Shown one piece after another: positions 1 through 64,000 of a stretch of DNA of 64,000 bases. Made by a program: the position numbers and the translations under genes. The stretch lies in the NCBI RefSeq assembly GCF_964204865.1, contig NC_135253.1:23312001-23376000 (forward strand), read 5' to 3'. The first letter of the stretch is position 1; every line of letters starts with the position of its first letter. The stretch is from Styela clava (Eukaryota). Under the pieces are notes generated by a model. The model was given only the letters and a program-made list of their open reading frames with translations. It was not told the DNA's origin and made no database searches.

Positions 1-660
1 TGTCAACACCGCCGAGTCAGCCGCAACTCAAACAAACAAGGCAATCTTCCAGACTCAAACAGTCATCGACGATTGGAAACACCCCGTTTCATCCTACATC
101 CAAAGGCAACCCTTATGTAAAAGTGATGGTGCACAACATCCAGCCACCGGAATTAACAACATCTTCCGTCTTCTCCACTGCACCTGATGAAATATCCTCC
201 GCACCGGCTAATCTGGAATACAACAAATCAAAATCCAAAACCGAGGACTTACCTGCCAAAAATCTTGACAATTCGGATTATACTATTAAAAGAAGCCGTG
301 AAGAAACGTCATCAGACTCTTCATTTTCAACCACTTTAGAATTTAGACTTGTTGGCAAAAAGAAAAAATAGTTATAAGTTAATTCGGACCCCACAAATCA
401 AAATTCTGTAATCTGGACATTTAATTCGGCCTTTAAACATCGAGCGTAAAACAAACTGCCCAGTTGATGGCATAAAACTCAACTTGATAATACCATCCCA
501 CTTATAGCGGATGTGATGAATGGAAGACTACCTCCTCATGTGGTATATAAAATGGTGATCTCTATGGCAAAGAGAAGGGATCCATATAACTTCCGTCGGC
601 ATAGTCTGGGTATGAAGGCAATTGGGCTGGATTCCAGACTTTGTCGTTCTGATCCGTTTG

Positions 661-697
<37 letters not shown>
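1..697 (+). mobile_element. N1 ORF1-only non-autonomous non-LTR retrotransposon, 3' part (5' end outside window)
   Basis: ORF1 C-terminus and 3' UTR ending TCTGATCCGT; poly(A) 661-697 joined to the SL-gamma intron start GTAAGCTAGAGCCC at 698; matches the full copies downstream. Confidence 0.93.
3..371 (+). CDS. N1 ORF1 C-terminal fragment (partial)
   Basis: Same frame and C-terminus (...TTLEFRLVGKKKK*) as complete N1 ORF1 copies. Confidence 0.9.
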   Translation, partial: STPPSQPQLKQTRQSSRLKQSSTIGNTPFHPTSKGNPYVKVMVHNIQPPELTTSSVFSTAPDEISSAPANLEYNKSKSKTEDLPAKNLDNSDYTIKRSREETSSDSSFSTTLEFRLVGKKKK

Positions 698-701
<4 letters not shown>

Positions 702-1297
702 GCTAGAGCCCGAGCTATTGCTCGTTATTTTATACTGCACATTCCAGATCGAAGTGGTTCGCGCTAACTCCTTCGTGACTTCCTATTCTCGCTAGTACGA
801 GACTTCTCGCGAAGTGAACGAGATAACAACGCGACGTGATACATCCTTTGTTGTCGCCGACTGACTTCTGCTCCCTTAGATTGTTGTCTTACATACATAC
901 ATGTCTTGTTGGAATAGATTGTGCAACCGAATGGGCTACAAACCAGTGACTATCATTATTCGCTGTATAATTAAGGTAAGTTCTGGAGCCGCGGCTCGTT
1001 ATTTAATATCGCACTCTTCGGTTGGAAGAAAACGCGTTCATTTTGTCCACGTTAACCCTTTCGTGACTTGACCTGTCAAAAAACCTTTCCGTGGGACCAA
1101 CGAGTTAACCCGCGCAGGTGCACTTCGTTTGATGGTTGCCGACATCGCGGCGAGTCAGGTTTCTGCGTTACTCGCTGTGTATGTCCAGACTGCTCGTCCA
1201 AGAACTTCAAATCTTGTGAGCATAGACTGTGCAGCCGAATGAGTCTCAAAGCAATGGCTATCATTATTGCTGTTTTGATTAAGGTAAGCTAGAGCCC
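698..1297 (+). repeat. SL RNA gene array segment (gamma intron, alpha gene, beta promoter with gamma-type exon)
   Basis: Matches the 840-bp trimer seen at 7558-8397 and elsewhere. Confidence 0.92.
952..997 (+). ncRNA. SL RNA gene, variant alpha
   Basis: Exon ATCATTATTCGCTGTATAATTAAG, donor GTAAG at 976, AGTTCTGG resembling the tunicate Sm-like AGCUUUGG, hairpin GAGCCGCGGCTC; 3' end approximate. Confidence 0.8.
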
Positions 1298-1653
1298 TTG
1301 ATCAACAGCACGGAGCGTCTGGTGGTCTTTTCTGCCATTCCGCGGCTTTTGCCAGCCCGCTCCGAACTAGGTGTATTGGGAGTGGCCTCTCCCCCTTCGG
1401 GAATTTCTTAGAGGCCACCCCGGCGTTTCCGTAACGGTTTTTATATAATAAACCGTTACCGCTTTTGTTTGTTGCTCTGTTAGTTTATAAACTTCTGTTA
1501 GTTAATAGCCCCAATTTCTACTACTACCATAATATCTAGCTCGTTTTTATTATCCTTCAGTTAGTTTCTTTGTAGTAGGTTTCCTTAATAACTCTTAGTT
1601 GAATAACATCTGGGGTTCTACATTTCTTCTATAGTTTCTCCGTAAAGTTCTTG

Positions 1654-3066
1654 ATGTCTGCCAGGACACACCTGCCTCTCGGCAGTCAGAGTGTCTCTGG
1701 CAGACCGGCAACTGGACCATCTGACCCGCAGACCTCTTCTTCTTCGGCAGCCAAACCACTATTCTCAAGTGTCGCAGCGTCGATTCCGAAGGTCGCGAAC
1801 GTGAAGGGGATCGAAGTTCAACGTGGGGAGTCAATTGACGCCACAACATCGCAGGACATCCCCACTGTCGCCGCTTTCTACCAACTTTTTTCGTCGGTTG
1901 AGCAGCTTCGACCCTTCAGGTCACTTGTTGAAGGAGTGTTCCCAATTAGATCGGGAACTTGGAATATCACCTTCCAGGCGGCAGATGGGGGAAATCGTGA
2001 CAAGTTCCTATCTACGATAGGAAACGAGCTTGATACCCCATCTGGCCGTATTAATTTTTTTTTGCCGCGTGGTTTGGGCACGCGCATTAGTGTGCGGAGT
2101 ATCCCGACGGAGGCGACGATCGAGCAAATTACCACCATGCTCGACTCGCTGAAGTTCGGGAAGGTACGCCGCGTATACCGAATATACCTTAAAAATACAA
2201 AGGTATATAATGGCTACATTCAAGCCATTGTTGATGATTTTAACAGGAATAATTTTCCTGACTTTATCAACATAGCCGGTATGCGCTGTAAGACGTACCT
2301 CCCCGCGGAACTCTATGTAAAATCATGTTTAAACTGCTTCGCTACCGGGCATTTGGCCCGAGAGTGCATTAACCCCCCCTCTTGCCGCCTGTGCAAAAAA
2401 ACCGGGCATGTGCAGAGGGACTGCACCGACTTCCCCTCCATTCCATCTGGCAGGAAGTCTAGTGAAGCAGCACCACCGCAAATTAAATCTCCCGTACAAT
2501 CTGTTTCTAAAACCTTGATGGGGAAGGCGAAATACACCTTCGCCAAGATCTCATCAAGTGCTCCAGCAACGCCTGTACGGAAAGAAAAGGAAAATAATAA
2601 TTATAATAAGGAGAACTCTTCTAGTAAGACTGGTAATTTTCTCAGTCGGGTTACAGTTGATGTCCATCCTGTCCCGACCGAGATACACGATATTACCGAC
2701 TCTCTAGAGTCGGAAAATATGGGAGATAAAATTAATAGGGTTTTAAATAATGGTAGTGGTCCTGGAAAGGACTCGGCTAACCTGGAAGAAAACAGCGACG
2801 ATGATGAGAGCTCTCTGGAAGCTGACTTACTTAATATAGCCAAACTAACAGAGTGCTCGGAAGAAGAACACGTGTCTTTTCGCGAGAAGATACGCATCCA
2901 TCGTAAATCCAAGGAGCCGGGTCCGGACTGGGACTACTCCAAAATTGAAAAGCCTTCGATTCTCAGGGACGAGAAGAGGGGACGCGAGAGCTCGTCTTCG
3001 GACGCGTCATCAGCTCTCCCCCCCCGTAAATCCCGGGGTCTTTCAGAACCATCGGCCGGTGAATAA
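1654..3066 (+). CDS. A1 ORF1, Gag-like nucleic-acid-binding protein
   Basis: ATG at 1654 (track starts at TTG 1651); knuckles CLNCFATGHLAREC and CRLCKKTGHVQRDC; low-complexity C-terminus. Confidence 0.93.
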   Translation: MSARTHLPLGSQSVSGRPATGPSDPQTSSSSAAKPLFSSVAASIPKVANVKGIEVQRGESIDATTSQDIPTVAAFYQLFSSVEQLRPFRSLVEGVFPIRSGTWNITFQAADGGNRDKFLSTIGNELDTPSGRINFFLPRGLGTRISVRSIPTEATIEQITTMLDSLKFGKVRRVYRIYLKNTKVYNGYIQAIVDDFNRNNFPDFINIAGMRCKTYLPAELYVKSCLNCFATGHLARECINPPSCRLCKKTGHVQRDCTDFPSIPSGRKSSEAAPPQIKSPVQSVSKTLMGKAKYTFAKISSSAPATPVRKEKENNNYNKENSSSKTGNFLSRVTVDVHPVPTEIHDITDSLESENMGDKINRVLNNGSGPGKDSANLEENSDDDESSLEADLLNIAKLTECSEEEHVSFREKIRIHRKSKEPGPDWDYSKIEKPSILRDEKRGRESSSSDASSALPPRKSRGLSEPSAGE

Positions 3067-3222
3067 TAAACCATAGCTCCAAGTTTTCATAATCCCTCTT
3101 TTCTGTTTTTTCTATGCTGGTGGATTAACATCCACAATAACCATTTTGATTAATCGTACTATACCAACTGTGCGTAATTTATTGAGTGGTATAATATATA
3201 ATTATTACCCAAATCTCTTTTA

Positions 3223-6200
3223 ATGGATACTTTGAGTTTAGTTTCACTCAATGTTAACGGACTGAACTCAAATAGACACAGGTTAGGCCTCTGGATACGG
3301 AGACACCAACCTGGAATAATTTCCTTGCAACAAGTACACCGTTGCAAAAAAGACGAGATTGATTCCTGGGCAGCCGACCTGGGATACACCGCACACCTCA
3401 ATACCATCCACCATGAAGTCACCTCGATGAAATATTTCAGAGCTGGGACTGGAATTCTAGTTAAAAATAACATCCCCTGTACCATTCTATCGTACAAGGT
3501 TTTAATTCCATACAGGCTCGGCCGTCTGGACTTTTTTTTCAATAGTAGCATTACATGCTTAATGAATGCTTATGTTCCTTCGGTTCGGGGCTGTACTCAG
3601 ACTGACTTCATGGTGAGGATGTGCGGTGTGTTTCAGACCCTAGACCCCCTGGACCCACTTATAATTTTAGGGGATTTTAATGCCGTCTTGGATGAGCGTG
3701 ATGTTCTAATTAAACAGAACTTCGGGCTCACCAAGGCGGAAAAAATACTTGGATCCTCTTTAAAATCTCTTGGTATGATTGATATCTTCCGCCAAAAACA
3801 TCCGGCTGGTCAGGTATATACCTGCAAAGTAGATACACAGGCGCGTAGGATTGATCGAATTTATATCTCCGATCACTACGCGGCCTGTGTGAAAGATATC
3901 TATCATATAATAAATACAGCTTCAGATCACACCCTTGCTCCAGCCCTAGTCTTGAAATCCACCTTGAAAAAGGTGGATGGAAAGGCTAGACCGAAATCTT
4001 CAACGAAGATTAGATGGGGCAAGGGTGCCTGGAGAAATAACACCTCTTTATATAGTGATCCAGAATATCGGGAAATAATAATTAATAGTTATAAAAATCT
4101 TGTTCACCGCATGGAAGAATTTTCATATATTCAAGATTGGTGGGATTTCACTAAAAATAGTATTAAAAAGAGTAGCATTGCTTTTTCCATCTATAAAGCA
4201 GATTTACATAGAAAGAAAAAGGACCATCTGGACTTTTTAATTAGAGATGGACAACATCATGCGGAAATATTAAATTTAAGAAAGGAACTTCTTCTTCACG
4301 AGTCAAAAAAATTAGAATTTATCAAATTAAAAGCACGTATTCAAGGGATGGAAGAGGGTGAAGAGCCCACCAAAATCTTCTATCAGAAACTTAAAAAAAG
4401 AGATCAGGACACCATAATTACACAACTTAAGGATAAATTCGGACAAATTAAAGAAAAACCGGAGGAAATAATTAGTATAGTCCATGACTTTTATAAGGAT
4501 CTCTGGGGAACCACATCAGATATTGATGTGGCAACTCAGGATGAACTTATAAAAGTCATGGAAACCACTCAGTTATCGAGTGATGATAACGGCCTAATTG
4601 AAAATGGAACTACTGAGGAAGAAGTCTTTTCTATAATAAAAAATATGGACAATGGCAAGTCGCCGGGTCTCGACGGCTTGTCTAAGGAATTTTACTTAGC
4701 GTTCTGGACCCTAATCAAAAAAGAACTCATAATTATAATTAATAACGTTTTATTTTCTGGCATACTGCCAGCATCATCAAAAGTAGCAAGAGTTAAACTA
4801 ATTTATAAGAAATCCGACGCTTTAGATTTGAAAAATTGGCGTCCGATTTCAAATCTAAACGTCGATTATAAAATCATCACAAAACTTCTTTCTAGGCGCC
4901 TTTTAAATTCCTTCTCTGGCATAATTAGTCCGACCCAGAAAAGTACCATTCTGGGTCGGTCTATCTTTGATGTGCATTATAATATCACAAGTGCACTCAA
5001 TTATGCCAAATACACTAATAGTCCGTATTTCATTGTTTCCATTGATAATCTCAAGGCGTTTGACATGGTTAATCATAATTATCTTTTGAGACTTCTCGAA
5101 AGCATTAACCTATGTCCAAGCGCCTTGAGATTGATAAAATCCATTTACACCGGCATTACCAGCATCATTGAGGTAAATGGGGCCTTCACCAAAAAAATTA
5201 ACATACTGAGAGGCATCCGTCAAGGGTGTCCTCTTAGTATGTTACTCTACACCATCAATGTGGAGCCCCTCAGCCGATGTGTAATCAATAATAAATTAAT
5301 AAAAGGTATTCGTATTGGTAATTTCACCCACAAATTGGATCAGTATGCGGACGACGCAACTTTTGTTGTGTCGGACGCATACTCGATTGATGCTATTTTT
5401 AATAACTTGGAGCTCTTTCGTCTAGCCACAGGGCAGCGGATCAACAGAGAAAAAACCTCCATCCTCTGTACTAATGATAGGGCGAAGGAGATTCTATCTT
5501 TTTTCCCCTATCATAGATACATAAAGGACCATATTAAAATCCTTGGAATCTACTTCGGTGAAAACCAAATTAATATAACTTGGAGCGAGAAGGTCTCCAA
5601 GATCGAACAAATAATTAATTTTAATCGGTCTAGATCCCTATCCTGGTACGGCAAGATCTTGGTTATCAATTCCTTGATCTTGTCTCAGGTTATTTTTAGC
5701 GCGAGGTCGGTCCCCATACCACCTCCTGTCATAAAATATATTGATCGCAAGATCTTCTCTTACCTCTGGATCTCTGAGCCTATGGAAGTATTGGGCCGGC
5801 GGATCCTCCGGAACGGTAAATCTATAGGTGGAATGGGTGTTCCCTGTCTTAACACCAAGATAGTTGCTTGCCAGGCTGAACGTTTCCAACAACTGGCCTC
5901 TCTTGTTAATCCCACACAATTGTGGCATAGAGAGGCCCAGTTCAGCCTTGGCAGTAAAATAATCCAGGTTAATCCTGGTTTGTTTAGCAACTCGATACCC
6001 CATTCCATCACCGTTCCGGAATCATGGCTGAAAGCCTTCAACACATTTCGTGTTTTGGGGGCTAAAGGCCATGATTGGGATTCTGCCGGTCTAGCTTCCA
6101 TATATAGGACCCTCATGAGTGAAAGAGAAGAAACTCCTCCATCTAATATTAACTGGGAGCGTGTCCACCTTTTGGACCGCTCCCTCAGGATTCATTTTAG

Positions 6201-6726
6201 TAACCCCGAAAGGGAAATTTCTTTCAGGACCGTCCGAAACGGGTTCTTATTTGGACAACGTCGGGCGGGAACCGGTTTTAAATACCATAAATTAAATAAC
6301 CGGCTGCTTAAACTTACTTGTAAGTTTTGTCGCCATGGAGTGGATAACACTCAACATCTCTTTTTAGAATGCAAGCCCTGCCTAAGCATGGCATCCGAAT
6401 TATCCAGAATCTTAAATAAAATCTGTTCGAGTCCTGTAAGTGTTTGTATGGATGATATATTCTACAACACTTACAGTGATAACCATACTCTCGCGGTCTT
6501 GAAAATTTTTCAAATTTTCAAGGTTTTTGTGATTAAAACAAAAAAGATTCTGGATAAGGAAGACCGCTATGCGAAGGAGGGCGACGCGAATAATATAATA
6601 AAATCAGTTATTACTGATTTTAACGAACATCTTCTGGCACGTGAGTTAAAGTATGGGGACGTGACCATCTATGATCTCGTTCCTAATTGGAAAGAGATTC
6701 TTTCTGGTTACGATTCCCATACATAA
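3223..6726 (+). CDS. A1 ORF2, APE endonuclease + reverse transcriptase + C-terminal Zn finger
   Basis: SLNVNG, GDFN, RIDRIY, SDH (APE); KSPGLDG, NWRPI, GIRQGCPLS, YADD (RT); CKFC..H..C; L1/Tx1-type architecture. Confidence 0.96.
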   Translation: MDTLSLVSLNVNGLNSNRHRLGLWIRRHQPGIISLQQVHRCKKDEIDSWAADLGYTAHLNTIHHEVTSMKYFRAGTGILVKNNIPCTILSYKVLIPYRLGRLDFFFNSSITCLMNAYVPSVRGCTQTDFMVRMCGVFQTLDPLDPLIILGDFNAVLDERDVLIKQNFGLTKAEKILGSSLKSLGMIDIFRQKHPAGQVYTCKVDTQARRIDRIYISDHYAACVKDIYHIINTASDHTLAPALVLKSTLKKVDGKARPKSSTKIRWGKGAWRNNTSLYSDPEYREIIINSYKNLVHRMEEFSYIQDWWDFTKNSIKKSSIAFSIYKADLHRKKKDHLDFLIRDGQHHAEILNLRKELLLHESKKLEFIKLKARIQGMEEGEEPTKIFYQKLKKRDQDTIITQLKDKFGQIKEKPEEIISIVHDFYKDLWGTTSDIDVATQDELIKVMETTQLSSDDNGLIENGTTEEEVFSIIKNMDNGKSPGLDGLSKEFYLAFWTLIKKELIIIINNVLFSGILPASSKVARVKLIYKKSDALDLKNWRPISNLNVDYKIITKLLSRRLLNSFSGIISPTQKSTILGRSIFDVHYNITSALNYAKYTNSPYFIVSIDNLKAFDMVNHNYLLRLLESINLCPSALRLIKSIYTGITSIIEVNGAFTKKINILRGIRQGCPLSMLLYTINVEPLSRCVINNKLIKGIRIGNFTHKLDQYADDATFVVSDAYSIDAIFNNLELFRLATGQRINREKTSILCTNDRAKEILSFFPYHRYIKDHIKILGIYFGENQINITWSEKVSKIEQIINFNRSRSLSWYGKILVINSLILSQVIFSARSVPIPPPVIKYIDRKIFSYLWISEPMEVLGRRILRNGKSIGGMGVPCLNTKIVACQAERFQQLASLVNPTQLWHREAQFSLGSKIIQVNPGLFSNSIPHSITVPESWLKAFNTFRVLGAKGHDWDSAGLASIYRTLMSEREETPPSNINWERVHLLDRSLRIHFSNPEREISFRTVRNGFLFGQRRAGTGFKYHKLNNRLLKLTCKFCRHGVDNTQHLFLECKPCLSMASELSRILNKICSSPVSVCMDDIFYNTYSDNHTLAVLKIFQIFKVFVIKTKKILDKEDRYAKEGDANNIIKSVITDFNEHLLARELKYGDVTIYDLVPNWKEILSGYDSHT

Positions 6727-7495
6727 GTCTCGCGTGCCAATTATTATATTATCTAAATAATAGTATTGGGTGTCATAACAACCTGTCCTCATCTCGATTG
6801 CTACCTAGTAACTCTATTACTTTGATAATAAGATCACCAGTTGAAAATAACTAGGTGTAATATAGTTACCATTAACATTAGGCAAACAAATAGTTAATAA
6901 AACGCCACGTACACCTATCTACCTGGCAACCTTTATTATTATTTAATTTATACTCTTATTTATTTTTGTTATCTTCTTCTCTCTTTTATAGCCCTTTCCT
7001 CTCCATCATTTTCTTTCTAACTCTTTTCTTCGTCAATCTGACTCTTTTTCTTCCATTTCTTACCTGCCTGGCCAAGACGGAATACTCGCCACTAGAGGGT
7101 TCAATGAGTGTGCATCAGGGTGCATTTCTCCGAACCCTCCCATGTGGCGGGAAATGTTTCGTCGAGGCCAGGCGTTCTGTTAATCTTTACCTTTTATTTT
7201 TCAGAAAAAGAAAGACCATCTAAAAGCCTCCCCTGCAACAAGTAAGTATAAAAAAGTAAGTATCGGTGGGTTGAGGCCTACTTAAAAAAAAAAAAAAAAA
7301 AAAGTAAGCTAGCGCCCGAGCTGCGGTTCGGTATTTTTTATTGCATTTTCCATACTCCAATTCGTAGAATATTTCAATTCGTTCGTCCTAACCCTCTCTT
7401 ATCTTTTGGCTTTGCGCGAGACACACCGCGGGCGGGCCTCGTTTGTTGTCGCCGACTTCTGCTTCTCGTTTTAGTATTCATTCGTACGCTTTGGC

Positions 7496-8171: not shown

Positions 8172-8458
8172 TATTTTTTATTGCATTTTCCATACTCCAA
8201 TTCGTAGAATATTTCAATTCGTTCGTCCTAACCCTCTCTTATCTTTTGGCTTTGCGCGAGACACACCGCGGGCGGGCCTCGTTTGTTGTCGCCGACTTCT
8301 GCTTCTCGTTTTAGTATTCATTCGTACGCTTTGGCATAGATCGTGCAACCGAATGGGCTTCAAAACATTGGAAATCATTATTGCTGTTTTGATTAAGGCA
8401 ACCCCTCACCGGGTTAGGCCCTCGACAGCAACGAAGCAAGAAGAAAAGGAAGAAGAAG

Positions 8459-9937
8459 ATGAACTACGCCGAAGCCGCCTCAACAACGCCTACACCTACA
8501 AGCGAAGAAACGACTGCACCGACTACACGACCTCGCACTCTGTTCCTGACAACCACCAAAGACCTGGACTTCCCTCGACTGTTCGACATCCTGAAGACCG
8601 ACTCAGCGTCCCGCAACTATGTCGACAACATCACGGGACTGTTCGAGGGAAGGAAAGGTCAGTGGATTTGTACTTTTGCCGCCACCGACGAACCCAACTC
8701 TAGCTGTCGCGAGCAATTTATGCACGACACAAAGGGTGAAATAAGAGTTTCAGACGGTACTATTACGGTATCGCTGCCAACCGAAGCACCTGTCCGAATA
8801 TCCATTCGAGGGATACCGGGTGAAACTTCCTACAGCAAGGCCGTGTCGACAATCGAACGACTGCAGTGCGGAAAAGTCCGGAATGCCACCAGAAACTGGT
8901 ACAGAGGTACGTCCATTTATAACGGATACACTTCCTTTTTTATTGAAAATTTTAAAAAGGACAGGTTACCAGATTACTTGGTCATCGACGGGAAAAGCTG
9001 CAAAACTTACCTGCCCAGGGAATTATACGTGCCAACCTGTGGTAGGTGTTTGAAATCCGGTCACAACTTCACCGAATGCGAAAGCGAACCAGTCTGTCGC
9101 TACTGCAAACAACTGGGCCATCTTTTAAAAGAGTGTCCATCCAGAAGGAAAGAATTTCCATCAATTTCCGGATCTACATGGACCTTTCCAAGACGTCGAA
9201 AACAGCAATCAGAAAACCCACCTTTTTCGGAACAACCAAGTAACCAAAATGCTTCACAACCTGCAACAGTATCGGGTTTACAAAATGCTTCACAACCTGG
9301 ACTAATTTCGGATTTACAAATTGCTACACAACCTGGACTAATTTCGGATTTACAAAACAACCAAAATGCCGTACAACCTACAAAACCGGATATACCAAAC
9401 GATCAAATGGATTTACAACCTGAATCGACCACTCTTACTCCGCATGACAACAGGATTGATCCAACCTCGAATGTGATCGAATTTTCCTCTTCAACCGAAT
9501 CAACCGACTTGAAAGAAATCAGCAACTGGTCGGAGTGCGAGGATGTGGGAAGCGTTATAAGCCCTCTGTCAACACCGCCGAGTCAGCCGCAACTCAAACA
9601 AACAAGGCAATCTTCCAGACTCAAACAGTCATCGACGATTGGAAACACCCCGTTTCATCCTACATCCAAAGGCAACCCTTATGTAAAAGTGATGGTGCAC
9701 AACATCCAGCCACCGGACTTAACAACATCTTCCGTCTTCTCCACTGCACCAGATGAAATATCCTCCGCACCGGCTAATCTGGAATACAACAAATCAAAAT
9801 CCAAAACCGTGGACTTACCTGCCAAAAATCTTGACAATTCGGATTATACTATTAAAAGAAGCCGTGAAGAAACGTCATCAGACTCGTCATTTTCAACCAC
9901 TTTAGAATTTAGACTTGTTGGCAAAAAGAAAAAATAG
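8459..9937 (+). CDS. N1 ORF1 (492 aa), zinc-knuckle protein homologous to B1/B2 ORF1
   Basis: CGRCLKSGHNFTEC, CRYCKQLGHLLKEC; shares RPRTLFL, STIGNTPFH and NWSECED with B1. Confidence 0.93.
   Translation: MNYAEAASTTPTPTSEETTAPTTRPRTLFLTTTKDLDFPRLFDILKTDSASRNYVDNITGLFEGRKGQWICTFAATDEPNSSCREQFMHDTKGEIRVSDGTITVSLPTEAPVRISIRGIPGETSYSKAVSTIERLQCGKVRNATRNWYRGTSIYNGYTSFFIENFKKDRLPDYLVIDGKSCKTYLPRELYVPTCGRCLKSGHNFTECESEPVCRYCKQLGHLLKECPSRRKEFPSISGSTWTFPRRRKQQSENPPFSEQPSNQNASQPATVSGLQNASQPGLISDLQIATQPGLISDLQNNQNAVQPTKPDIPNDQMDLQPESTTLTPHDNRIDPTSNVIEFSSSTESTDLKEISNWSECEDVGSVISPLSTPPSQPQLKQTRQSSRLKQSSTIGNTPFHPTSKGNPYVKVMVHNIQPPDLTTSSVFSTAPDEISSAPANLEYNKSKSKTVDLPAKNLDNSDYTIKRSREETSSDSSFSTTLEFRLVGKKKK
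9245..9360 (+). repeat. 36-bp coding minisatellite (QNASQPGLISDL-like)
   Basis: Three units here; copy number differs among N1 copies. Confidence 0.85.
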
Positions 9938-10221
9938 TTATAAGTTAATTCGGACCCCACAAATCAAAATTCTGTAATCTGGACATTTAATTCGGCCTTT
10001 AAACATCGAGCGTAAAACAAACTGCCCAGTTGATGGCATAAAACTCAACTTGATAATACCATCCTACTTATAGCGGGTGTGATGAATGGAAGACTACCTC
10101 TTCATGTGGTATATAAAATGGTGATCTCTATGGCAAAGAGAAGGGATCCATATAACTTCCTTCGGCATAGTCTGGGTATGAAGGCAATTGGGCTGGATTC
10201 CAGACTTTGTCGTTCTGATCC

Positions 10222-10259
<38 letters not shown>

Positions 10260-12884: not shown

Positions 12885-12931
<47 letters not shown>
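11097..12931 (+). mobile_element. N1 ORF1-only element, full length
   Basis: Between gamma exon and gamma intron; poly(A) tail. Confidence 0.93.
11158..12600 (+). CDS. N1 ORF1 (480 aa)
   Basis: Intact ORF with two CCHC knuckles. Confidence 0.93.
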   Translation: MNYAEAASTTPTPTSEESTAPTTRPRTLFLTTTKDLDFPRLFDILKTDSASQNYVDNITGLFEGRKGQWICTFAATDDPNSSCREQFLHDTKGEIRVLDGAITVSMPTEAPVRISIRGIPGETSYSKAVSTIERLQCGKVRNATRNWYRGTSIYNGYTSFFIENFKKDRLPDYLVIDGKSCKTYLPRELYVPTCGRCLKSGHNFTECESEPVCRYCKQLGHLLKECPSRRKEFPSISGSTWTFPRRQKQQSENPPFSEQPSNQNASHPATVSDLQNATQPGLISDLQNNQNAVQPTKPDIPNDQMDLQPESTTLTPHDNRIDPTSNVIEFSSSTESTDLKEISNWSECENVGSVISPLSTPPSQPQLKQTRQSSRLKQSSTIGNTPFHPTSKGNPYVKVMVHNIQPPDLTTSSVFSTAPDEISSAPANLEYNKSKSKTVDLPAANLDNSDYAIKRSREDTSSDSSFSTTLEFRLVGKKKK

Positions 12932-50131: not shown

Positions 50132-50501
50132 GTAAGCTAGAGCCCTTGATCAACAGCACGGAGCGTCTGGTGGTCTTTTCTGCCATTCCGCGGCTTTTGC
50201 CAGCCCGCTCCGAACTAGGTGTATTGGGAGTGGCCTCTCCCCCTTCGGGAATTTCTTAGAGGCCACCCCGGCGTTTCCGTAACGGTTTTTATATAATAAA
50301 CCGTTACCGCTTTTGTTTGTTGCTCTGTTAGTTTATAAACTTCTGTTAGTTAATAGCCCCAATTTCTACTACTACCATAATATCTAGCTCGTTTTTATTA
50401 TCCTTCAGTTAGTTTCTTTGTAGTAGGTTTCCTTAATAACTCTTAGTTGAATAACATCTGGGGTTCTACATTTCTTCTATAGTTTCTCCGTAAAGTTCTT
50501 G

Positions 50502-51914: not shown

Positions 51915-52070
51915 TAAACCATAGCTCCAAGTTTTCATAATCCCTCTTTTCTGTTTTTTCTATGCTGGTGGATTAACATCCACAATAACCATTTTGATTA
52001 ATCGTACTATACCAACTGTGCGTAATTTATTGAGTGGTATAATATATAATTATTACCCAAATCTCTTTTA

Positions 52071-55000: not shown

Positions 55001-55574
55001 CTGGGAGCGTGTCCACCTTTTGGACCGCTCCCTCAGGATTCATTTTAGTAACCCCGAAAGGGAAATTTCTTTCAGGACCGTCCGAAACGGGTTCTTATTT
55101 GGACAACGTCGGGCGGGAACCGGTTTTAAATACCATAAATTAAATAACCGGCTGCTTAAACTTACTTGTAAGTTTTGTCGCCATGGAGTGGATAACACTC
55201 AACATCTCTTTTTAGAATGCAAGCCCTGCCTAAGCATGGCATCCGAATTATCCAGAATCTTAAATAAAATCTGTTCGAGTCCTGTAAGTGTTTGTATGGA
55301 TGATATATTCTACAACACTTACAGTGATAACCATACTCTCGCGGTCTTGAAAATTTTTCAAATTTTCAAGGTTTTTGTGATTAAAACAAAAAAGATTCTG
55401 GATAAGGAAGACCGCTATGCGAAGGAGGGCGACGCGAATAATATAATAAAATCAGTTATTACTGATTTTAACGAACATCTTCTGGCACGTGAGTTAAAGT
55501 ATGGGGACGTGACCATCTATGATCTCGTTCCTAATTGGAAAGAGATTCTTTCTGGTTACGATTCCCATACATAA
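52071..55574 (+). CDS. A1 ORF2, APE + RT
   Basis: Translation matches the 3223 copy. Confidence 0.96.
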   Translation: MDTLSLVSLNVNGLNSNRHRLGLWIRRHQPGIISLQQVHRCKKDEIDSWAADLGYTAHLNTIHHEVTSMKYFRAGTGILVKNNIPCTILSYKVLIPYRLGRLDFFFNSSITCLMNAYVPSVRGCTQTDFMVRMCGVFQTLDPLDPLIILGDFNAVLDERDVLIKQNFGLTKAEKILGSSLKSLGMIDIFRQKHPAGQVYTCKVDTQARRIDRIYISDHYAACVKDIYHIINTASDHTLAPALVLKSTLKKVDGKARPKSSTKIRWGKGAWRNNTSLYSDPEYREIIINSYKNLVHRMEEFSYIQDWWDFTKNSIKKSSIAFSIYKADLHRKKKDHLDFLIRDGQHHAEILNLRKELLLHESKKLEFIKLKARIQGMEEGEEPTKIFYQKLKKRDQDTIITQLKDKFGQIKEKPEEIISIVHDFYKDLWGTTSDIDVATQDELIKVMETTQLSSDDNGLIENGTTEEEVFSIIKNMDNGKSPGLDGLSKEFYLAFWTLIKKELIIIINNVLFSGILPASSKVARVKLIYKKSDALDLKNWRPISNLNVDYKIITKLLSRRLLNSFSGIISPTQKSTILGRSIFDVHYNITSALNYAKYTNSPYFIVSIDNLKAFDMVNHNYLLRLLESINLCPSALRLIKSIYTGITSIIEVNGAFTKKINILRGIRQGCPLSMLLYTINVEPLSRCVINNKLIKGIRIGNFTHKLDQYADDATFVVSDAYSIDAIFNNLELFRLATGQRINREKTSILCTNDRAKEILSFFPYHRYIKDHIKILGIYFGENQINITWSEKVSKIEQIINFNRSRSLSWYGKILVINSLILSQVIFSARSVPIPPPVIKYIDRKIFSYLWISEPMEVLGRRILRNGKSIGGMGVPCLNTKIVACQAERFQQLASLVNPTQLWHREAQFSLGSKIIQVNPGLFSNSIPHSITVPESWLKAFNTFRVLGAKGHDWDSAGLASIYRTLMSEREETPPSNINWERVHLLDRSLRIHFSNPEREISFRTVRNGFLFGQRRAGTGFKYHKLNNRLLKLTCKFCRHGVDNTQHLFLECKPCLSMASELSRILNKICSSPVSVCMDDIFYNTYSDNHTLAVLKIFQIFKVFVIKTKKILDKEDRYAKEGDANNIIKSVITDFNEHLLARELKYGDVTIYDLVPNWKEILSGYDSHT

Positions 55575-56128
55575 GTCTCGCGTGCCAATTATTATATTAT
55601 CTAAATAATAGTATTGGGTGTCATAACAACCTGTCCTCATCTCGATTGCTACCTAGTAACTCTATTACTTTGATAATAAGATCACCAGTTGAAAATAACT
55701 AGGTGTAATATAGTTACCATTAACATTAGGCAAACAAATAGTTAATAAAACGCCACATACACCTATCTACCTGGCAACCTTTATTATTATTTAATTTATA
55801 CTCTTATTTATTTTTGTTATCTTCTTCTCTCTTTTATAGCCCTTTCCTCTCCATCATTTTCTTTCTAACTCTTTTCTTCGTCAATCTGACTCTTTTTCTT
55901 CCATTTCTTACCTGCCTGGCCAAGACGGAATACTCGCCACTAGAGGGTTCAATGAGTGTGCATCAGGGTGCATTTCTCCGAACCCTCCCATGTGGCGGGA
56001 AATGTTTCGTCGAGGCCAGGCGTTCTGTTAATCTTTACCTTTTATTTTTCAGAAAAAGAAAGACCATCTAAAAGCCTCCCCTGCAACAAGTAAGTATAAA
56101 AAAGTAAGTATCGGTGGGTTGAGGCCTA

Positions 56129-56165
<37 letters not shown>

Positions 56166-57001: not shown

Positions 57002-58601
57002 GTAACCCCTCACCGGGTTAGGCCCTCGACAGCAACGAAGCAAGAAGAAAAGGAAGAAGAAGAATATGAACTACGCCGAAGCCGCCTCGACAACGCCTAC
57101 ACCTACAAGCGAAGAAACGACTGCACCGACTACACGACCTCGCACTCTGTTCCTGACAACCACCAAAGACCTGGACTTCCCTCGACTGTTCGACATCCTC
57201 AAGACCGATTCAGCGTCCCGAAACTACGTCGACAACATCACGGGACTGTTCGAGGGAAGAAAAGGTCAGTGGATATGTACTTTTGCCGCCACCGACGACC
57301 CCAACTCTAGCTGTCGCGAGAAATTCTTGCACGACACAAAGGGTGAAATAAGAGTTTCAGACGGTGCTATTACGGTATCGCTGCCAACCGAAGCACCAGT
57401 CCGAATATCCATTCGAGGGATACCGGGTGAAACTTCCTACAGCAAGGCCGTGTCGACAATCGAACGACTGCAGTGCGGAAAAGTCCGGAATGCCACCAGA
57501 AACTGGTACAGAGGTACGTCCATTTATAACGGATACACTTCCTTTTTTATTGAAAATTTTAAAAAGGACAGGTTACCAGATTACTTGGTCATCGACGGGA
57601 AAAGCTGCAAAACTTACCTGCCCAGGGAATTATACGTGCCAACCTGTGGTAGGTGTTTGAAATCCGGTCACAACTTCACCGAATGCGAAAGCGAACCAGT
57701 CTGTCGCTACTGCAAACAACTGGGCCATCTTTTAAAAGAGTGTCCATCCAGAAGGAAAGAATTTCCATCAATTTCCGGATCTACATGGACCTTACCAAGA
57801 CGTCAAAAACAGCAATCAGAAAACCCACCTTTTTCGGAACAACCAAGTAACCAAAATGCTTCACAACCTGCAACAGTATCGGATTTACAAAATGCTACAC
57901 AGCCTGGACTAATTTCGGATTTACAAAACAACCAAAATGCCGTACAACCTACAAAACCGGATATACCAAACGATCAAATGGATTTACAACCTGAATCGAC
58001 CACTCTTACTCCGCATGACAACAGGATTGATCCAACCTCGAATGTAATCGAATTTTCCTCTTCCACCGAATCAACCGACCTAAAAGAAATCAGCAACTGG
58101 TCGGAGTGCGAGGATGTGGGAAGCGTTATAAGCCCTCTGTCAACACCGCCGAGTCAGCCGCAACTCAAACAAACAAGGCAATCTTCCAGACTCAAACAGT
58201 CATCGACGATTGGAAACACCCCGTTTCATCCTACATCCAAAGGCAACCCTTATGTAAAAGTGATGGTGCACAACATCCAGCCACCGGAATTAACAACATC
58301 TTCCGTCTTCTCCACTGCACCTGATGAAATATCCTCCGCACCGGCTAATCTGGAATACAACAAATCAAAATCCAAAACCGAGGACTTACCTGCCAAAAAT
58401 CTTGACAATTCGGATTATACTATTAAAAGAAGCCGTGAAGAAACGTCATCAGACTCTTCATTTTCAACCACTTTAGAATTTAGACTTGTTGGCAAAAAGA
58501 AAAAATAGTTATAAGTTAATTCGGACCCCACAAATCAAAATTCTGTAATCTGGACATTTAATTCGGCCTTTAAACATCGAGCGTAAGACAAACTGCCCAG
58601 T
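57002..58601 (+). mobile_element. N1 element lacking its distal 3' UTR and poly(A)
   Basis: 3' UTR breaks at ...CTGCCCAGT and joins TTGATTAAG-GTAAGCTAGAGCCC + A1. Confidence 0.9.
57066..58508 (+). CDS. N1 ORF1 (480 aa)
   Basis: Intact ORF. Confidence 0.93.
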   Translation: MNYAEAASTTPTPTSEETTAPTTRPRTLFLTTTKDLDFPRLFDILKTDSASRNYVDNITGLFEGRKGQWICTFAATDDPNSSCREKFLHDTKGEIRVSDGAITVSLPTEAPVRISIRGIPGETSYSKAVSTIERLQCGKVRNATRNWYRGTSIYNGYTSFFIENFKKDRLPDYLVIDGKSCKTYLPRELYVPTCGRCLKSGHNFTECESEPVCRYCKQLGHLLKECPSRRKEFPSISGSTWTLPRRQKQQSENPPFSEQPSNQNASQPATVSDLQNATQPGLISDLQNNQNAVQPTKPDIPNDQMDLQPESTTLTPHDNRIDPTSNVIEFSSSTESTDLKEISNWSECEDVGSVISPLSTPPSQPQLKQTRQSSRLKQSSTIGNTPFHPTSKGNPYVKVMVHNIQPPELTTSSVFSTAPDEISSAPANLEYNKSKSKTEDLPAKNLDNSDYTIKRSREETSSDSSFSTTLEFRLVGKKKK

Positions 58602-58980
58602 TTGATTAAGGTAAGCTAGAGCCCTTGATCAACAGCACGGAGCGTCTGGTGGTCTTTTCTGCCATTCCGTGGCTTTTGCCAGCCCGCTCCGAACTAGGTG
58701 TATTGGGAGTGGCCTCTCCCCCTTCGGGAATTTCTTAGAGGCCACCCCGGCGTTTCCGTAACGGTTTTTATATAATAAACCGTTACCGCTTTTGTTTGTT
58801 GCTCTGTTAGTTTATAAACTTCTGTTAGTTAATAGCCCCAATTTCTACTACTACCATAATATCTAGCTCGTTTTTATTATCCTTCAGTTAGTTTCTTTGT
58901 AGTAGGTTTCCTTAATAACTCTTAGTTGAATAACATCTGGGGTTCTACATTTCTTCTATAGTTTCTCCGTAAAGTTCTTG

Positions 58981-60393
58981 ATGTCTGCCAGGACACACCT
59001 GCCTCTCGGCAGTCAGAGTGTCTCTGGCAGACCGGCAACTGGACCATCTGACCCGCAGACCTCTTCTTCTTCGGCAGCCAAACCACTATTCTCAAGTGTC
59101 GCAGCGTCGATTCCGAAGGTCGCGAACGTGAAGGGGATCGAAGTTCAACGTGGGGAGTCAATTGACGCCACAACATCGCAGGACATCCCCACTGTCGCCG
59201 CTTTCTACCAACTTTTTTCGTCGGTTGAGCAGCTTCGACCCTTCAGGTCACTTGTTGAAGGAGTGTTCCCAATTAGATCGGGAACTTGGAATATCACCTT
59301 CCAGGCGGCAGATGGGGGAAATCGTGACAAGTTCCTATCTACGATAGGAAACGAGCTTGATACCCCATCTGGCCGTATTAATTTTTTTTTGCCGCGTGGT
59401 TTGGGCACGCGCATTAGTGTGCGGAGTATCCCGACGGAGGCGACGATCGAGCAAATTACCACCATGCTCGACTCGCTGAAGTTCGGGAAGGTACGCCGCG
59501 TATACCGAATATACCTTAAAAATACAAAGGTATATAATGGCTACATTCAAGCCATTGTTGATGATTTTAACAGGAATAATTTTCCTGACTTTATCAACAT
59601 AGCCGGTATGCGCTGTAAGACGTACCTCCCCGCGGAACTCTATGTAAAATCATGTTTAAACTGCTTCGCTACCGGGCATTTGGCCCGAGAGTGCATTAAC
59701 CCCCCCTCTTGCCGCCTGTGCAAAAAAACCGGGCATGTGCAGAGGGACTGCACCGACTTCCCCTCCATTCCATCTGGCAGGAAGTCTAGTGAAGCAGCAC
59801 CACCGCAAATTAAATCTCCCGTACAATCTGTTTCTAAAACCTTGATGGGGAAGGCGAAATACACCTTCGCCAAGATCTCATCAAGTGCTCCAGCAACGCC
59901 TGTACGGAAAGAAAAGGAAAATAATAATTATAATAAGGAGAACTCTTCTAGTAAGACTGGTAATTTTCTCAGTCGGGTTACAGTTGATGTCCATCCTGTC
60001 CCGACCGAGATACACGATATTACCGACTCTCTAGAGTCGGAAAATATGGGAGATAAAATTAATAGGGTTTTAAATAATGGTAGTGGTCCTGGAAAGGACT
60101 CGGCTAACCTGGAAGAAAACAGCGACGATGATGAGAGCTCTCTGGAAGCTGACTTACTTAATATAGCCAAACTAACAGAGTGCTCGGAAGAAGAACACGT
60201 GTCTTTTCGCGAGAAGATACGCATCCATCGTAAATCCAAGGAGCCGGGTCCGGACTGGGACTACTCCAAAATTGAAAAGCCTTCGATTCTCAGGGACGAG
60301 AAGAGGGGACGCGAGAGCTCGTCTTCGGACGCGTCATCAGCTCTCCCCCCCCGTAAATCCCGGGGTCTTTCAGAACCATCGGCCGGTGAATAA
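58981..60393 (+). CDS. A1 ORF1
   Basis: Translation matches the 1654 copy. Confidence 0.93.
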   Translation: MSARTHLPLGSQSVSGRPATGPSDPQTSSSSAAKPLFSSVAASIPKVANVKGIEVQRGESIDATTSQDIPTVAAFYQLFSSVEQLRPFRSLVEGVFPIRSGTWNITFQAADGGNRDKFLSTIGNELDTPSGRINFFLPRGLGTRISVRSIPTEATIEQITTMLDSLKFGKVRRVYRIYLKNTKVYNGYIQAIVDDFNRNNFPDFINIAGMRCKTYLPAELYVKSCLNCFATGHLARECINPPSCRLCKKTGHVQRDCTDFPSIPSGRKSSEAAPPQIKSPVQSVSKTLMGKAKYTFAKISSSAPATPVRKEKENNNYNKENSSSKTGNFLSRVTVDVHPVPTEIHDITDSLESENMGDKINRVLNNGSGPGKDSANLEENSDDDESSLEADLLNIAKLTECSEEEHVSFREKIRIHRKSKEPGPDWDYSKIEKPSILRDEKRGRESSSSDASSALPPRKSRGLSEPSAGE

Positions 60394-60549
60394 TAAACCA
60401 TAGCTCCAAGTTTTCATAATCCCTCTTTTCTGTTTTTTCTATGCTGGTGGATTAACATCCACAATAACCATTTTGATTAATCGTACTATACCAACTGTGC
60501 GTAATTTATTGAGTGGTATAATATATAATTATTACCCAAATCTCTTTTA

Positions 60550-63500
60550 ATGGATACTTTGAGTTTAGTTTCACTCAATGTTAACGGACTGAACTCAAAT
60601 AGACACAGGTTAGGCCTCTGGATACGGAGACACCAACCTGGAATAATTTCCTTGCAACAAGTACACCGTTGCAAAAAAGACGAGATTGATTCCTGGGCAG
60701 CCGACCTGGGATACACCGCACACCTCAATACCATCCACCATGAGGTCACCTCGATGAAATATTTCAGAGCTGGGACTGGAATTCTAGTTAAAAATAACAT
60801 CCCCTGTACCATTCTATCGTACAAGGTTTTAATTCCATACAGGCTCGGCCGTCTGGACTTTTTTTTCAATAGTAGCATTACATGCTTAATGAATGCTTAT
60901 GTCCCTTCGGTTCGGGGCTGTACTCAGACTGACTTCATGGTGAGGATGTGCGGTGTGTTTCAGACCCTAGACCCCCTGGACCCACTTATAATTTTAGGGG
61001 ATTTTAATGCCGTCTTGGATGAGCGTGATGTTCTAATTAAACAGAACTTCGGGCTCACCAAGGCGGAAAAAATACTTGGATCCTCTTTAAAATCTCTTGG
61101 TATGATTGATATCTTCCGCCAAAAACATCCGGCTGGTCAGGTATATACCTGCAAAGTAGATACACAGGCGCGTAGGATTGATCGAATTTATATCTCCGAT
61201 CACTACGCGGCCTGTGTGAAAGATATCTATCATATAATAAATACAGCTTCAGATCACACCCTTGCTCCAGCCCTAGTCTTGAAATCCACCTTGAAAAAGG
61301 TGGATGGAAAGGCTAGACCGAAATCTTCAACGAAGATTAGATGGGGCAAGGGTGCCTGGAGAAATAACACCTCTTTATATAGTGATCCAGAATATCGGGA
61401 AATAATAATTAATAGTTATAAAAATCTTGTTCACCGCATGGAAGAATTTTCATATATTCAAGATTGGTGGGATTTCACTAAAAATAGTATTAAAAAGAGT
61501 AGCATTGCTTTTTCCATCTATAAAGCAGATTTACATAGAAAGAAAAAGGACCATCTGGACTTTTTAATTAGAGATGGACAACATCATGCGGAAATATTAA
61601 ATTTAAGAAAGGAACTTCTTCTTCACGAGTCAAAAAAATTAGAATTTATCAAATTAAAAGCACGTATTCAAGGGATGGAAGAGGGTGAAGAGCCCACCAA
61701 AATCTTCTATCAGAAACTTAAAAAAAGAGATCAGGACACCATAATTACACAACTTAAGGATAAATTCGGACAAATTAAAGAAAAACCGGAGGAAATAATT
61801 AGTATAGTCCATGACTTTTATAAGGATCTCTGGGGAACCACATCAGATATTGATGTGGCAACTCAGGATGAACTTATAAAAGTCATGGAAACCACTCAGT
61901 TATCGAGTGATGATAACGGCCTAATTGAAAATGGAACTACTGAGGAAGAAGTCTTTTCTATAATAAAAAATATGGACAATGGCAAGTCGCCGGGTCTCGA
62001 CGGCTTGTCTAAGGAATTTTACTTAGCGTTCTGGACCCTAATCAAAAAAGAACTCATAATTATAATTAATAACGTTTTATTTTCTGGCATACTGCCAGCA
62101 TCATCAAAAGTAGCAAGAGTTAAACTAATTTATAAGAAATCCGACGCTTTAGATTTGAAAAATTGGCGTCCGATTTCAAATCTAAACGTCGATTATAAAA
62201 TCATCACAAAACTTCTTTCTAGGCGCCTTTTAAATTCCTTCTCTGGCATAATTAGTCCGACCCAGAAAAGTACCATTCTGGGTCGGTCTATCTTTGATGT
62301 GCATTATAATATCACAAGTGCACTCAATTATGCCAAATACACTAATAGTCCGTATTTCATTGTTTCCATTGATAATCTCAAGGCGTTTGACATGGTTAAT
62401 CATAATTATCTTTTGAGACTTCTCGAAAGCATTAACCTATGTCCAAGCGCCTTGAGATTGATAAAATCCATTTACACCGGCATTACCAGCATCATTGAGG
62501 TAAATGGGGCCTTCACCAAAAAAATTAACATACTGAGAGGCATCCGTCAAGGGTGTCCTCTTAGTATGTTACTCTACACCATCAATGTGGAGCCCCTCAG
62601 CCGATGTGTAATCAATAATAAATTAATAAAAGGTATTCGTATTGGTAATTTCACCCACAAATTGGATCAGTATGCGGACGACGCAACTTTTGTTGTGTCG
62701 GACGCATACTCGATTGATGCTATTTTTAATAACTTGGAGCTCTTTCGTCTAGCCACAGGGCAGCGGATCAACAGAGAAAAAACCTCCATCCTCTGTACTA
62801 ATGATAGGGCGAAGGAGATTCTATCTTTTTTCCCCTATCATAGATACATAAAGGACCATATTAAAATCCTTGGAATCTACTTCGGTGAAAACCAAATTAA
62901 TATAACTTGGAGCGAGAAGGTCTCCAAGATCGAACAAATAATTAATTTTAATCGGTCTAGATCCCTATCCTGGTACGGCAAGATCTTGGTTATCAATTCC
63001 TTGATCTTGTCTCAGGTTATTTTTAGCGCGAGGTCGGTCCCCATACCACCTCCTGTCATAAAATATATTGATCGCAAGATCTTCTCTTACCTCTGGATCT
63101 CTGAGCCTATGGAAGTATTGGGCCGGCGGATCCTCCGGAACGGTAAATCTATAGGTGGAATGGGTGTTCCCTGTCTTAACACCAAGATAGTTGCTTGCCA
63201 GGCTGAACGTTTCCAACAACTGGCCTCTCTTGTTAATCCCACACAATTGTGGCATAGAGAGGCCCAGTTCAGCCTTGGCAGTAAAATAATCCAGGTTAAT
63301 CCTGGTTTGTTTAGCAACTCGATACCCCATTCCATCACCGTTCCGGAATCATGGCTGAAAGCCTTCAACACATTTCGTGTTTTGGGGGCTAAAGGCCATG
63401 ATTGGGATTCTGCCGGTCTAGCTTCCATATATAGGACCCTCATGAGTGAAAGAGAAGAAACTCCTCCATCTAATATTAACTGGGAGCGTGTCCACCTTTT

Positions 63501-64000
63501 GGACCGCTCCCTCAGGATTCATTTTAGTAACCCCGAAAGGGAAATTTCTTTCAGGACCGTCCGAAACGGGTTCTTATTTGGACAACGTCGGGCGGGAACC
63601 GGTTTTAAATACCATAAATTAAATAACCGGCTGCTTAAACTTACTTGTAAGTTTTGTCGCCATGGAGTGGATAACACTCAACATCTCTTTTTAGAATGCA
63701 AGCCCTGCCTAAGCATGGCATCCGAATTATCCAGAATCTTAAATAAAATCTGTTCGAGTCCTGTAAGTGTTTGTATGGATGATATATTCTACAACACTTA
63801 CAGTGATAACCATACTCTCGCGGTCTTGAAAATTTTTCAAATTTTCAAGGTTTTTGTGATTAAAACAAAAAAGATTCTGGATAAGGAAGACCGCTATGCG
63901 AAGGAGGGCGACGCGAATAATATAATAAAATCAGTTATTACTGATTTTAACGAACATCTTCTGGCACGTGAGTTAAAGTATGGGGACGTGACCATCTATG
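60550..64000 (+). CDS. A1 ORF2 (3'-partial; stop outside window)
   Basis: ATGGATACTTTGAG at 60550; colinear with 3223-6673; missing from the ORF track only because it has no stop in the window. Confidence 0.93.
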   Translation, partial: MDTLSLVSLNVNGLNSNRHRLGLWIRRHQPGIISLQQVHRCKKDEIDSWAADLGYTAHLNTIHHEVTSMKYFRAGTGILVKNNIPCTILSYKVLIPYRLGRLDFFFNSSITCLMNAYVPSVRGCTQTDFMVRMCGVFQTLDPLDPLIILGDFNAVLDERDVLIKQNFGLTKAEKILGSSLKSLGMIDIFRQKHPAGQVYTCKVDTQARRIDRIYISDHYAACVKDIYHIINTASDHTLAPALVLKSTLKKVDGKARPKSSTKIRWGKGAWRNNTSLYSDPEYREIIINSYKNLVHRMEEFSYIQDWWDFTKNSIKKSSIAFSIYKADLHRKKKDHLDFLIRDGQHHAEILNLRKELLLHESKKLEFIKLKARIQGMEEGEEPTKIFYQKLKKRDQDTIITQLKDKFGQIKEKPEEIISIVHDFYKDLWGTTSDIDVATQDELIKVMETTQLSSDDNGLIENGTTEEEVFSIIKNMDNGKSPGLDGLSKEFYLAFWTLIKKELIIIINNVLFSGILPASSKVARVKLIYKKSDALDLKNWRPISNLNVDYKIITKLLSRRLLNSFSGIISPTQKSTILGRSIFDVHYNITSALNYAKYTNSPYFIVSIDNLKAFDMVNHNYLLRLLESINLCPSALRLIKSIYTGITSIIEVNGAFTKKINILRGIRQGCPLSMLLYTINVEPLSRCVINNKLIKGIRIGNFTHKLDQYADDATFVVSDAYSIDAIFNNLELFRLATGQRINREKTSILCTNDRAKEILSFFPYHRYIKDHIKILGIYFGENQINITWSEKVSKIEQIINFNRSRSLSWYGKILVINSLILSQVIFSARSVPIPPPVIKYIDRKIFSYLWISEPMEVLGRRILRNGKSIGGMGVPCLNTKIVACQAERFQQLASLVNPTQLWHREAQFSLGSKIIQVNPGLFSNSIPHSITVPESWLKAFNTFRVLGAKGHDWDSAGLASIYRTLMSEREETPPSNINWERVHLLDRSLRIHFSNPEREISFRTVRNGFLFGQRRAGTGFKYHKLNNRLLKLTCKFCRHGVDNTQHLFLECKPCLSMASELSRILNKICSSPVSVCMDDIFYNTYSDNHTLAVLKIFQIFKVFVIKTKKILDKEDRYAKEGDANNIIKSVITDFNEHLLARELKYGDVTIY

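Follow-up and report, generated by a model that had tools for sequence, protein, structure and literature searches.

The window analysed here, 64,000 nt of the Styela clava genome (NC_135253.1, positions 23,312,001-23,376,000 of the forward strand, on the contig labelled C4), is part of a ~188-kb array of three types of spliced leader (SL) RNA gene in which retrotransposons of the LINE-1 (L1, long interspersed nuclear element 1) group sit at the SL splice donors. These elements carry an apurinic endonuclease-like (APE) domain and a reverse transcriptase (RT), and they probably target the donor by nicking and target-primed reverse transcription and make use of the SL promoter and its capped leader. 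Coordinates below are window positions unless prefixed with a contig label (C4, C5, C6, C8 or C16), and statements drawn from cited papers refer to the portions of those papers that were available.

Spliced leader genes and insertion at the splice donor

The window contains thirty 24-nt exons of three types (a, b and c). All lie on the + strand, the - strand having none, and they form three-gene SL units of 831-840 bp. In the 21 intact copies the exon leads into a GT donor, a short hairpin and an Sm-like stretch rich in T, and this tandemly arrayed combination of features is that of SL RNA genes. One intact unit occupies 16251..17081 (+), with the SL-a exon at 16251-16274, the SL-b exon at 16505-16528 and the SL-c exon at 16783-16806, each with its GT donor, hairpin and Sm-like T-rich site. 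The nine other exons are followed by an element in place of the SL body, as are 26 of 122 exons over the whole C4 array, and SL-unit DNA amounts to 19% of the array and 13% of the window. An Rfam scan of the window gave no SL or hepatitis delta virus (HDV)-like ribozyme match (12 sub-threshold hits), the same scan of 12 loci from other SL arrays gave no match, and a tRNA scan of the window found none. None of the 28 hits listed by a literature search with the exon strings was SL-related by title, and no RNA sequence records with the array unit were found.

The DNA nevertheless argues strongly that the exons are spliced leaders. Exon b has 75 exact matches genome-wide, 36 of them outside the C4 array, and the a/c type has 1109, mostly in tandem arrays. 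We inspected 53 exon sites outside the C4 and C6 arrays, comprising all 33 of type b and 20 of type a/c taken from the first 100 of the 1109. After removal of the target lineage and of near-duplicates, 33 distinct 5' ends of other elements were joined to an SL exon at its last base; those scanned were CR1-like (PHD plus APE, with a Baculo_FP-type first open reading frame, ORF1), Gypsy-like or copia-like. In one CR1-like family we examined each of the 15 copies that have an intact 5' end, and different exons stood at the identical junction nucleotide: four of type c, four exact and two degenerate copies of type a, one of type b, two of the exon of the C8 array and one new related exon. The leader of the remaining copy looked unrelated and may belong to yet another SL type. 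Such interchange of exons at one junction is the outcome expected of trans-splicing and subsequent retroposition, and it speaks for SL identity; unrelated transcripts, preserved as retrocopies, are joined to the last base of the exon. Together with the gene structure, this supports at the DNA level the proposal of an initial annotation, made from the letters of the window, that the stretch is an SL RNA gene array.

SL trans-splicing among chordates is known in tunicates (PMC3074122, PMC3691228), and flatworm long terminal repeat (LTR) and LINE loci with partial leaders have been described (PMC12582326). The dispersed CR1-, Gypsy- and copia-like copies that begin with an SL exon here resemble those SL-tagged retrocopies, which are trans-spliced passengers without a target, whereas in the array elements the exon-intron junction is still unspliced and insertion is directed to the SL gene. 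An SL exon stands at the start of many CR1-like families and of some Gypsy- and copia-like elements, and the end of a retrocopied exon may act as the next trans-splice acceptor. Two leaders were seen on exon-tagged elements for which no SL gene was located among the loci inspected. None of the 53 exon-tagged sites could be identified as an SL-tagged copy of a cellular gene, several ORF-less sites being of untraced origin. An intronless troponin I retrocopy at C16:1,770,469-1,773,867 has no SL exon in front of it, and an intron-bearing relative lies at C8:15.36 Mb. The troponin I is of chordate type, which together with SL trans-splicing agrees with the tunicate host that the initial annotation had surmised.

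Element insertion is centred on the donor. All 13 poly(A) junctions in the window lie within 0 to +5 nt of a donor, ten of them at 0, one at +1 and two at +5 (B1 and B2), bearing out the initial placement of the junctions between AAG and GTAAG or at most 5 nt downstream. Three of the 13 meet the donor-like 5' start of a following element rather than an SL body. Over the whole C4 array, 33 of 33 element tails of at least 12 A lie at 0 to +5 of a donor or at a tandem element start, and the sole other long A-run listed falls outside the array. Both sets of junctions were counted by hand, and control genome searches with reversed patterns gave no matches. The offset is characteristic of the family (0 for A, N1 and Bf, +5 for B1-B4, about +23 for a single C5 family), and the elements invariably share the orientation of the SL gene. 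The donor-centred rule thus holds in the C4 array and fails for the C5 family, which inserts ~23 nt downstream. We also considered whether the 5' intron-start bases of A1 are a target-site duplication and rejected this, the b-type start being found in SL-a, SL-c and SL-d contexts as well.

Enzymes and phylogeny of the element families

Pfam domains PF03372 (APE) and PF00078 (RT) were found in all four ORF2 proteins scanned, with APE N-terminal to RT. Against human L1 ORF2p the alignment extended over residues 8-881 (E 5e-60), and against R2 it covered the RT only (2e-25). An APE before the RT, closer similarity to L1 than to the R2 group, and a poly(A) tail show the elements, on their sequences, to be L1-group non-LTR retrotransposons. 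The initial annotation was therefore right to assign them an APE-type enzyme and not a restriction-like endonuclease (RLE); the CRE/NeSL arrangement, with an RLE after the RT and no APE, differs from the N-terminal APE seen here. A C-terminal Cys/His region gave weak zf-RVT matches below the cut-off in two of the four proteins.

Placement within the group, where the initial annotation had called the elements Tx1-like, is less direct. A zinc-knuckle (CCHC) Gag-like ORF1 is a trait of the Tx1 clade, and zf-CCHC matches, some of them below the cut-off, were obtained in five of six ORF1 proteins scanned. The hairpin loop of the A1 endonuclease (EN) aligned without gaps to the 7-residue R1Bm loop graft and with four gaps to the Tx1L graft (PMC1950540), so that it is of R1Bm length, four residues shorter than in Tx1L; the 11-residue loop that is absent here is a trait of Tx1L itself and not of the whole clade. 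The RT tree was a quick tree with a midpoint root, and its outgroups were 60 selected database relatives (of 259 returned) without named Tx1 families, Tx1-clade placement being outside its scope.

Clustering of 37 intact ORF2 copies from the loci inspected gave 15 families at 88% identity. In the tree the 14 autonomous SL-array families, drawn from four SL arrays, group together (Shimodaira-Hasegawa-like approximate likelihood ratio test, SH-aLRT, 94) on the branches A (five families), B (seven), Bf and B5. This grouping agrees with the single radiation that had been proposed. The further suggestion that the radiation took place within one niche did not hold, as the families occupy four SL arrays and at least six SL gene types and have sister families sited at histone genes. 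Ten of the 15 families have both the catalytic Glu of the EN and the C-terminal Asp/His motifs. The best database protein relatives are 30-45% identical, 80 metagenome loci are just 25-38% identical, and a search of the ESM Atlas returned generic APE+RT clusters. A set of long contigs from another organism repeatedly carries five related ORF2 families and may represent a further targeted array.

Target preference, leader carry-over and alternative explanations

Genome-wide, 93 A-type tails were found, 15 in the C4 array, four in C6, 37 in C8 (4.17-4.57 Mb) and 37 dispersed, which is an enrichment of ~500-fold in the ~1 Mb of SL arrays (a hand estimate from match spans, inflated by duplication). 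SL arrays hold 56 of the 93 A-type ends, 16 of 29 N1 ends and 17 of 57 B1/B2-type ends, in each case above the 20% of flanks falling in one repeat that the Kojima criterion uses to define a target-specific family (PMC4494074). The other B1/B2-type tails, assigned by position, comprise 12 in the histone cluster region and 28 elsewhere. All 37 dispersed A-type sites were inspected; most are A/T-rich, and four adjoin the SL-tagged 5' end of another element. SL targeting is thus a strong preference and is not exclusive. A majority of copies outside the arrays had been named as the observation that would speak against targeting, and by that measure the A and N1 families stand and the B1/B2-type families do not.

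Insertions at the same donor recur in SL genes of further types in the C5, C6 and C8 arrays. Interrupted genes number 25 of 37 in C8, 9 of 156 sampled in C6 and 6 of 19 in C5, the C6 and C5 samples having been chosen partly because they carry elements. The large C6 array (C6:19.28-19.7 Mb; 0.49-kb unit) is lightly occupied by elements and is probably the main SL array, likely holding most of the 1109 a/c matches if its inferred extent is correct. The C8 array (C8:4.17-4.57 Mb) consists of a divergent SL gene with a ~27-nt exon, a TATA-like promoter and a 1.6-kb unit; its exon tags CR1-like copies, so the gene is likely a working leader. At C5:7.90-7.96 Mb the SL gene has a 21-nt exon, and a B family is inserted about 23 nt past the donor.

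Related elements also occur at histone genes. In the 20 kb inspected at C8:7.82-7.84 Mb, B-tailed elements terminate immediately upstream of the histone H2A and H3 start codons, with H1, H4 and H2B genes also present, and one element starts after the H3 promoter and the first H3 codons. Twelve B-type tails map to the cluster region (C8:7.58-7.93 Mb), three of which were inspected. The one intact ORF2 from this region falls just outside the SL-array group in the RT tree. These H2A/H3-sited sisters suggest a general strategy of the lineage, insertion behind strong multicopy RNA polymerase II promoters.

Element copies bring leader sequence with them. In the C6 array, whose SL-d genes have an a-type exon of their own, exon b has arrived with three N1 copies, and two A1 copies have placed a fragment of exon b, together with an intron start, after the native exon. 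Of the N1 copies lying outside C4 and C6, five of five carry exon b, two of them with clear target-site duplications, and dispersed B copies retain the exon and an unspliced intron start. Since copies import their own exon type into other SL genes and off-target sites, the RNA template likely begins at the SL start with the exon unspliced. A ribozyme would be unnecessary, because copies retain the exon nearly to its first base.

How an SL-initiated RNA could keep its leader was examined by folding the first 60 nt. A stem over the donor was predicted in B1, B3, B4, B2 and Bf and a stem over the exon in A1 and the A families of SL-f genes, with G-U among several of the pairs; in N1 and the SL-f families it is the donor that is altered. 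Duplex z scores averaged -1.84 for 13 element 5' ends, +0.90 for six native SL bodies and -0.79 for 33 trans-spliced controls (p 0.004), with controls given the best of three exons and rows from related families not being independent. For the SL-f families the strongest pairing is with the f exon, and only they and the Bd families show a clear specificity for the cognate exon. We therefore predict, with modest support, that the 5' untranslated region (UTR) masks the splice donor by pairing.

These observations can be arranged into a working model. Elements insert at the donor at the family-specific offsets and in SL orientation. Transcription would then start at SL +1 with the exon remaining unspliced on the RNA, and the first ~60 nt would pair with the exon or donor, or the donor would be mutated (N1, SL-f families), either of which would stop the leader being spliced away. 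Full-length cDNA would end in the SL exon and could pair with the exon lying upstream of the nick or take its place. The ORF1-only N1 and N2 elements would depend for mobilization in trans on partners with matching tails. The N2 tail is of A type, and the N1 tail resembles those of Bf and B5 and not those of B1/B2; with Bf inserting at 0, Bf and B5 are the likely N1 partners. On this scheme the lineage would have radiated over several SL gene types, with a sister branch behind histone promoters.

Several results weigh against targeted insertion and leader capture. The preference is leaky, with 37 of 93 A, 13 of 29 N1 and 40 of 57 B1/B2-type ends outside SL arrays. In all five A-lineage endonucleases, Gln replaces the metal-binding Glu of L1 (QE motif; at 3223-3972 and 43355-44100 in the window, and likewise in the C8 A families), which makes nicking activity uncertain; the other sites are intact in A1. 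The node that joins the 14 families is below the level starred by the tool, in a quick tree. A z score below -1.64 was reached by seven of 13 element 5' ends but also by seven of 33 controls, and A1 pairs equally well with exons a, d and b. The copies are not all independent, as duplication of an A1'+A2 block has left two identical A1' copies, and block duplication inflates the array counts. Finally, no element transcript and no SL-capped cellular mRNA was seen. At the troponin I locus four RNA runs were examined and exon-joining contigs were obtained in three; no SL end was among the loose ends listed, a listing that stopped short of the 5' end of the gene and omitted 492 others.

One way to read these weaknesses is that the elements have only a weak local preference for an A-run followed by GT, accumulating in the arrays through tolerance, transcription and unequal crossing-over, with precision at the donor coming from annealing of read-through RNA and not from the EN. 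Common off-target A copies (GT follows in 11 of 36 scored), identical duplicated blocks and the Glu-to-Gln change at the catalytic site fit such an account, as does the help that co-transcribed target RNA gives to R1/R2 targeting (PMC4494074). We nonetheless regard it as unlikely, because the offsets of 0, +5 and about +23 recur by family across SL genes and chromosomes, near-identical A1 copies stand in different gene contexts, and the A-lineage EN is under purifying selection (A1 versus A2 dN/dS, the ratio of nonsynonymous to synonymous rates, 0.13).

The leader itself could have been acquired differently, by ordinary trans-splicing as in the CR1-like families and not by co-transcription. 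Leaders are commonly trans-spliced onto retroelement RNA in this genome, and N1 lacks an intron start behind its exon. We give this explanation very little credence, since A and B copies retain an exon and intron start, the latter of which splicing would have removed, and every N1 5' end inspected carries exon b, in contrast to the mixed exons of trans-spliced families. It is also barely credible that the 24-nt units are another small-RNA gene or an element-derived repeat. The missing Rfam and published matches and the troponin I result would be expected of such units; the joining of their last base to unrelated element families, with type swapping within a family, would not, nor would the donor, hairpin and Sm-like site or the 1109 a/c-type and 75 b-type exact matches lying mostly in tandem arrays. 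Donor-targeting by an L1-group lineage that takes over SL transcription remains the account we favour.

Elements in the window and relation to known systems

As the initial annotation had it, the window holds 15 co-oriented elements of six families, all on the + strand: seven N1, four A1 and one each of A2, N2, B1 and B2. Members of one family share 92-100% ORF1 identity, compared with 22-60% across families, and ORF2 identity is 75% for A1/A2, 54% for B1/B2 and 39-40% for A/B. ORF2 with APE and RT is present in seven of the 15; the seven N1 copies and N2 encode ORF1 only. A1 copies in different contexts are 2-6 substitutions apart, pointing to recent activity, and A1/A2 dN/dS is 0.09-0.13.

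The first element is the 3' part of an N1 (1..697; poly(A) 661-697, junction 0 at an SL-b donor). It is followed by an autonomous A1 in an SL-a gene (1260..7303; ORF1 1654-3063, ORF2 3223-6723). The exon in front of this A1 (1260-1283) is of type b, though its flanks are an SL-a promoter and SL-a body, so it was likely carried in by the element RNA. An ORF1-only N1 at 8398..10257 lies behind an exon b whose donor is changed to GC, with its junction at +1, and the N1 copies at 11097..12931 and 13772..15688 both have junction 0. N2 (17301..19786, 5' boundary approximate; ORF 17500-18864), with an A-type ORF1 and tail, belongs to a family found mostly in the C8 SL-f array, and its tail joins the 5' start of an autonomous B1 (19787..25709; ORF1 20016-21473, ORF2 21740-25225; junction +5 in SL-b). 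The 5' UTR of this B1 is complementary to exon b and its donor. An N1 at 26546..28495 (junction 0) precedes the autonomous B2 at 28774..34512 (ORF1 28853-30316, ORF2 30529-33993; SL-c, junction +5).

The A1 variant A1' (35347..41400) is in tandem with the autonomous A2 (41401..47478; ORF1 41714-43165, ORF2 43355-46855; junction 0 in SL-b), and the block is duplicated 33 kb downstream. The tail of the next N1 (48319..50131) joins the 5' start of an A1 (50132..56161; junction 0 in SL-b). Another N1 (57002..58600) has had its 3' end replaced by the last A1 and a partial SL exon; that A1 (58611..64000) leaves the window, with its tail ~600 nt beyond and junction 0 in SL-b. The N1 ORF1 contains an in-frame 36-bp tandem repeat of two to four copies that varies between N1 copies (9245-9357, 14619-14765, 27393-27539). 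A long imperfect hairpin in A1 ORF2 (4485-4558, and in three other A1 copies) has a weak miRNA-precursor score far below threshold, and in A-type 3' UTRs (e.g. 47370-47413) the terminus is immediately preceded by one or two motifs resembling a donor.

Elements that encode only ORF1 are known as HAL1, or 'half-L1'. N1 and N2 resemble them in encoding just ORF1, sharing a tail with autonomous relatives and ending in poly(A), but they differ in following their partners to the SL donor and carrying the SL exon. Among elements that insert in SL genes, the CRE clade (CRE1/2, SLACS and CZAR of trypanosomatids) and NeSL of nematodes are non-LTR elements (PMC3636483, PMC4640811) for which co-transcription with the target had been proposed without experimental data as of PMC3636483. 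They share the SL target with the elements described here, a likeness of working without membership: CRE and NeSL belong to the R2 group with a C-terminal RLE, whereas the present elements have two ORFs and an N-terminal APE, and at least 14 autonomous and several ORF1-only families share four arrays. The Tx1 families (Tx1L, Keno at U2, Kibi, Koshi, Tx1-Mar, and those targeting U5 and 5S) are likewise APE-type animal elements with a preference for multicopy targets, listed as U2, U5, 5S, microsatellites, satellites and transposons (PMC4494074); the available portions of PMC4494074 and PMC4640811 name neither SL nor histone genes as targets. A full-text literature search, with most subscription journals, supplements and Repbase/Dfam outside its scope, found no APE-type SL targeter or histone-targeting LINE. 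We tentatively propose, with somewhat less than even confidence, an undescribed L1-group lineage adapted to promoter and cap capture close behind the starts of multicopy RNA polymerase II genes (six SL gene types and H2A/H3). Its RNA would be SL-capped and unspliced, with a 5' UTR that has coevolved as an antisense of the leader and so conceals the donor, and one branch would use a Glu-to-Gln EN. SL targeting would then have arisen a third time, on an APE basis, and the lineage would include the first histone-gene-targeting LINEs.

SL targeting was previously known from the RLE elements of trypanosomatids and nematodes. An APE lineage on the SL genes of a chordate would be a convergence with a different enzyme, like the parallel choice of the U2 site by Keno (APE, Tx1) and Utopia (RLE) (PMC4494074, PMC4640811). 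From exon-tagged retrocopies, at least six SL exon types can be recognized in Styela clava without recourse to RNA data, and the elements pose the question of how an SL-initiated transcript keeps its leader and whether it receives a trimethylguanosine (TMG) cap. With their differing offsets and SL genes, the 14 related families and their histone sisters form a natural series for studying how APE targets change and how large a part RNA-target pairing plays.

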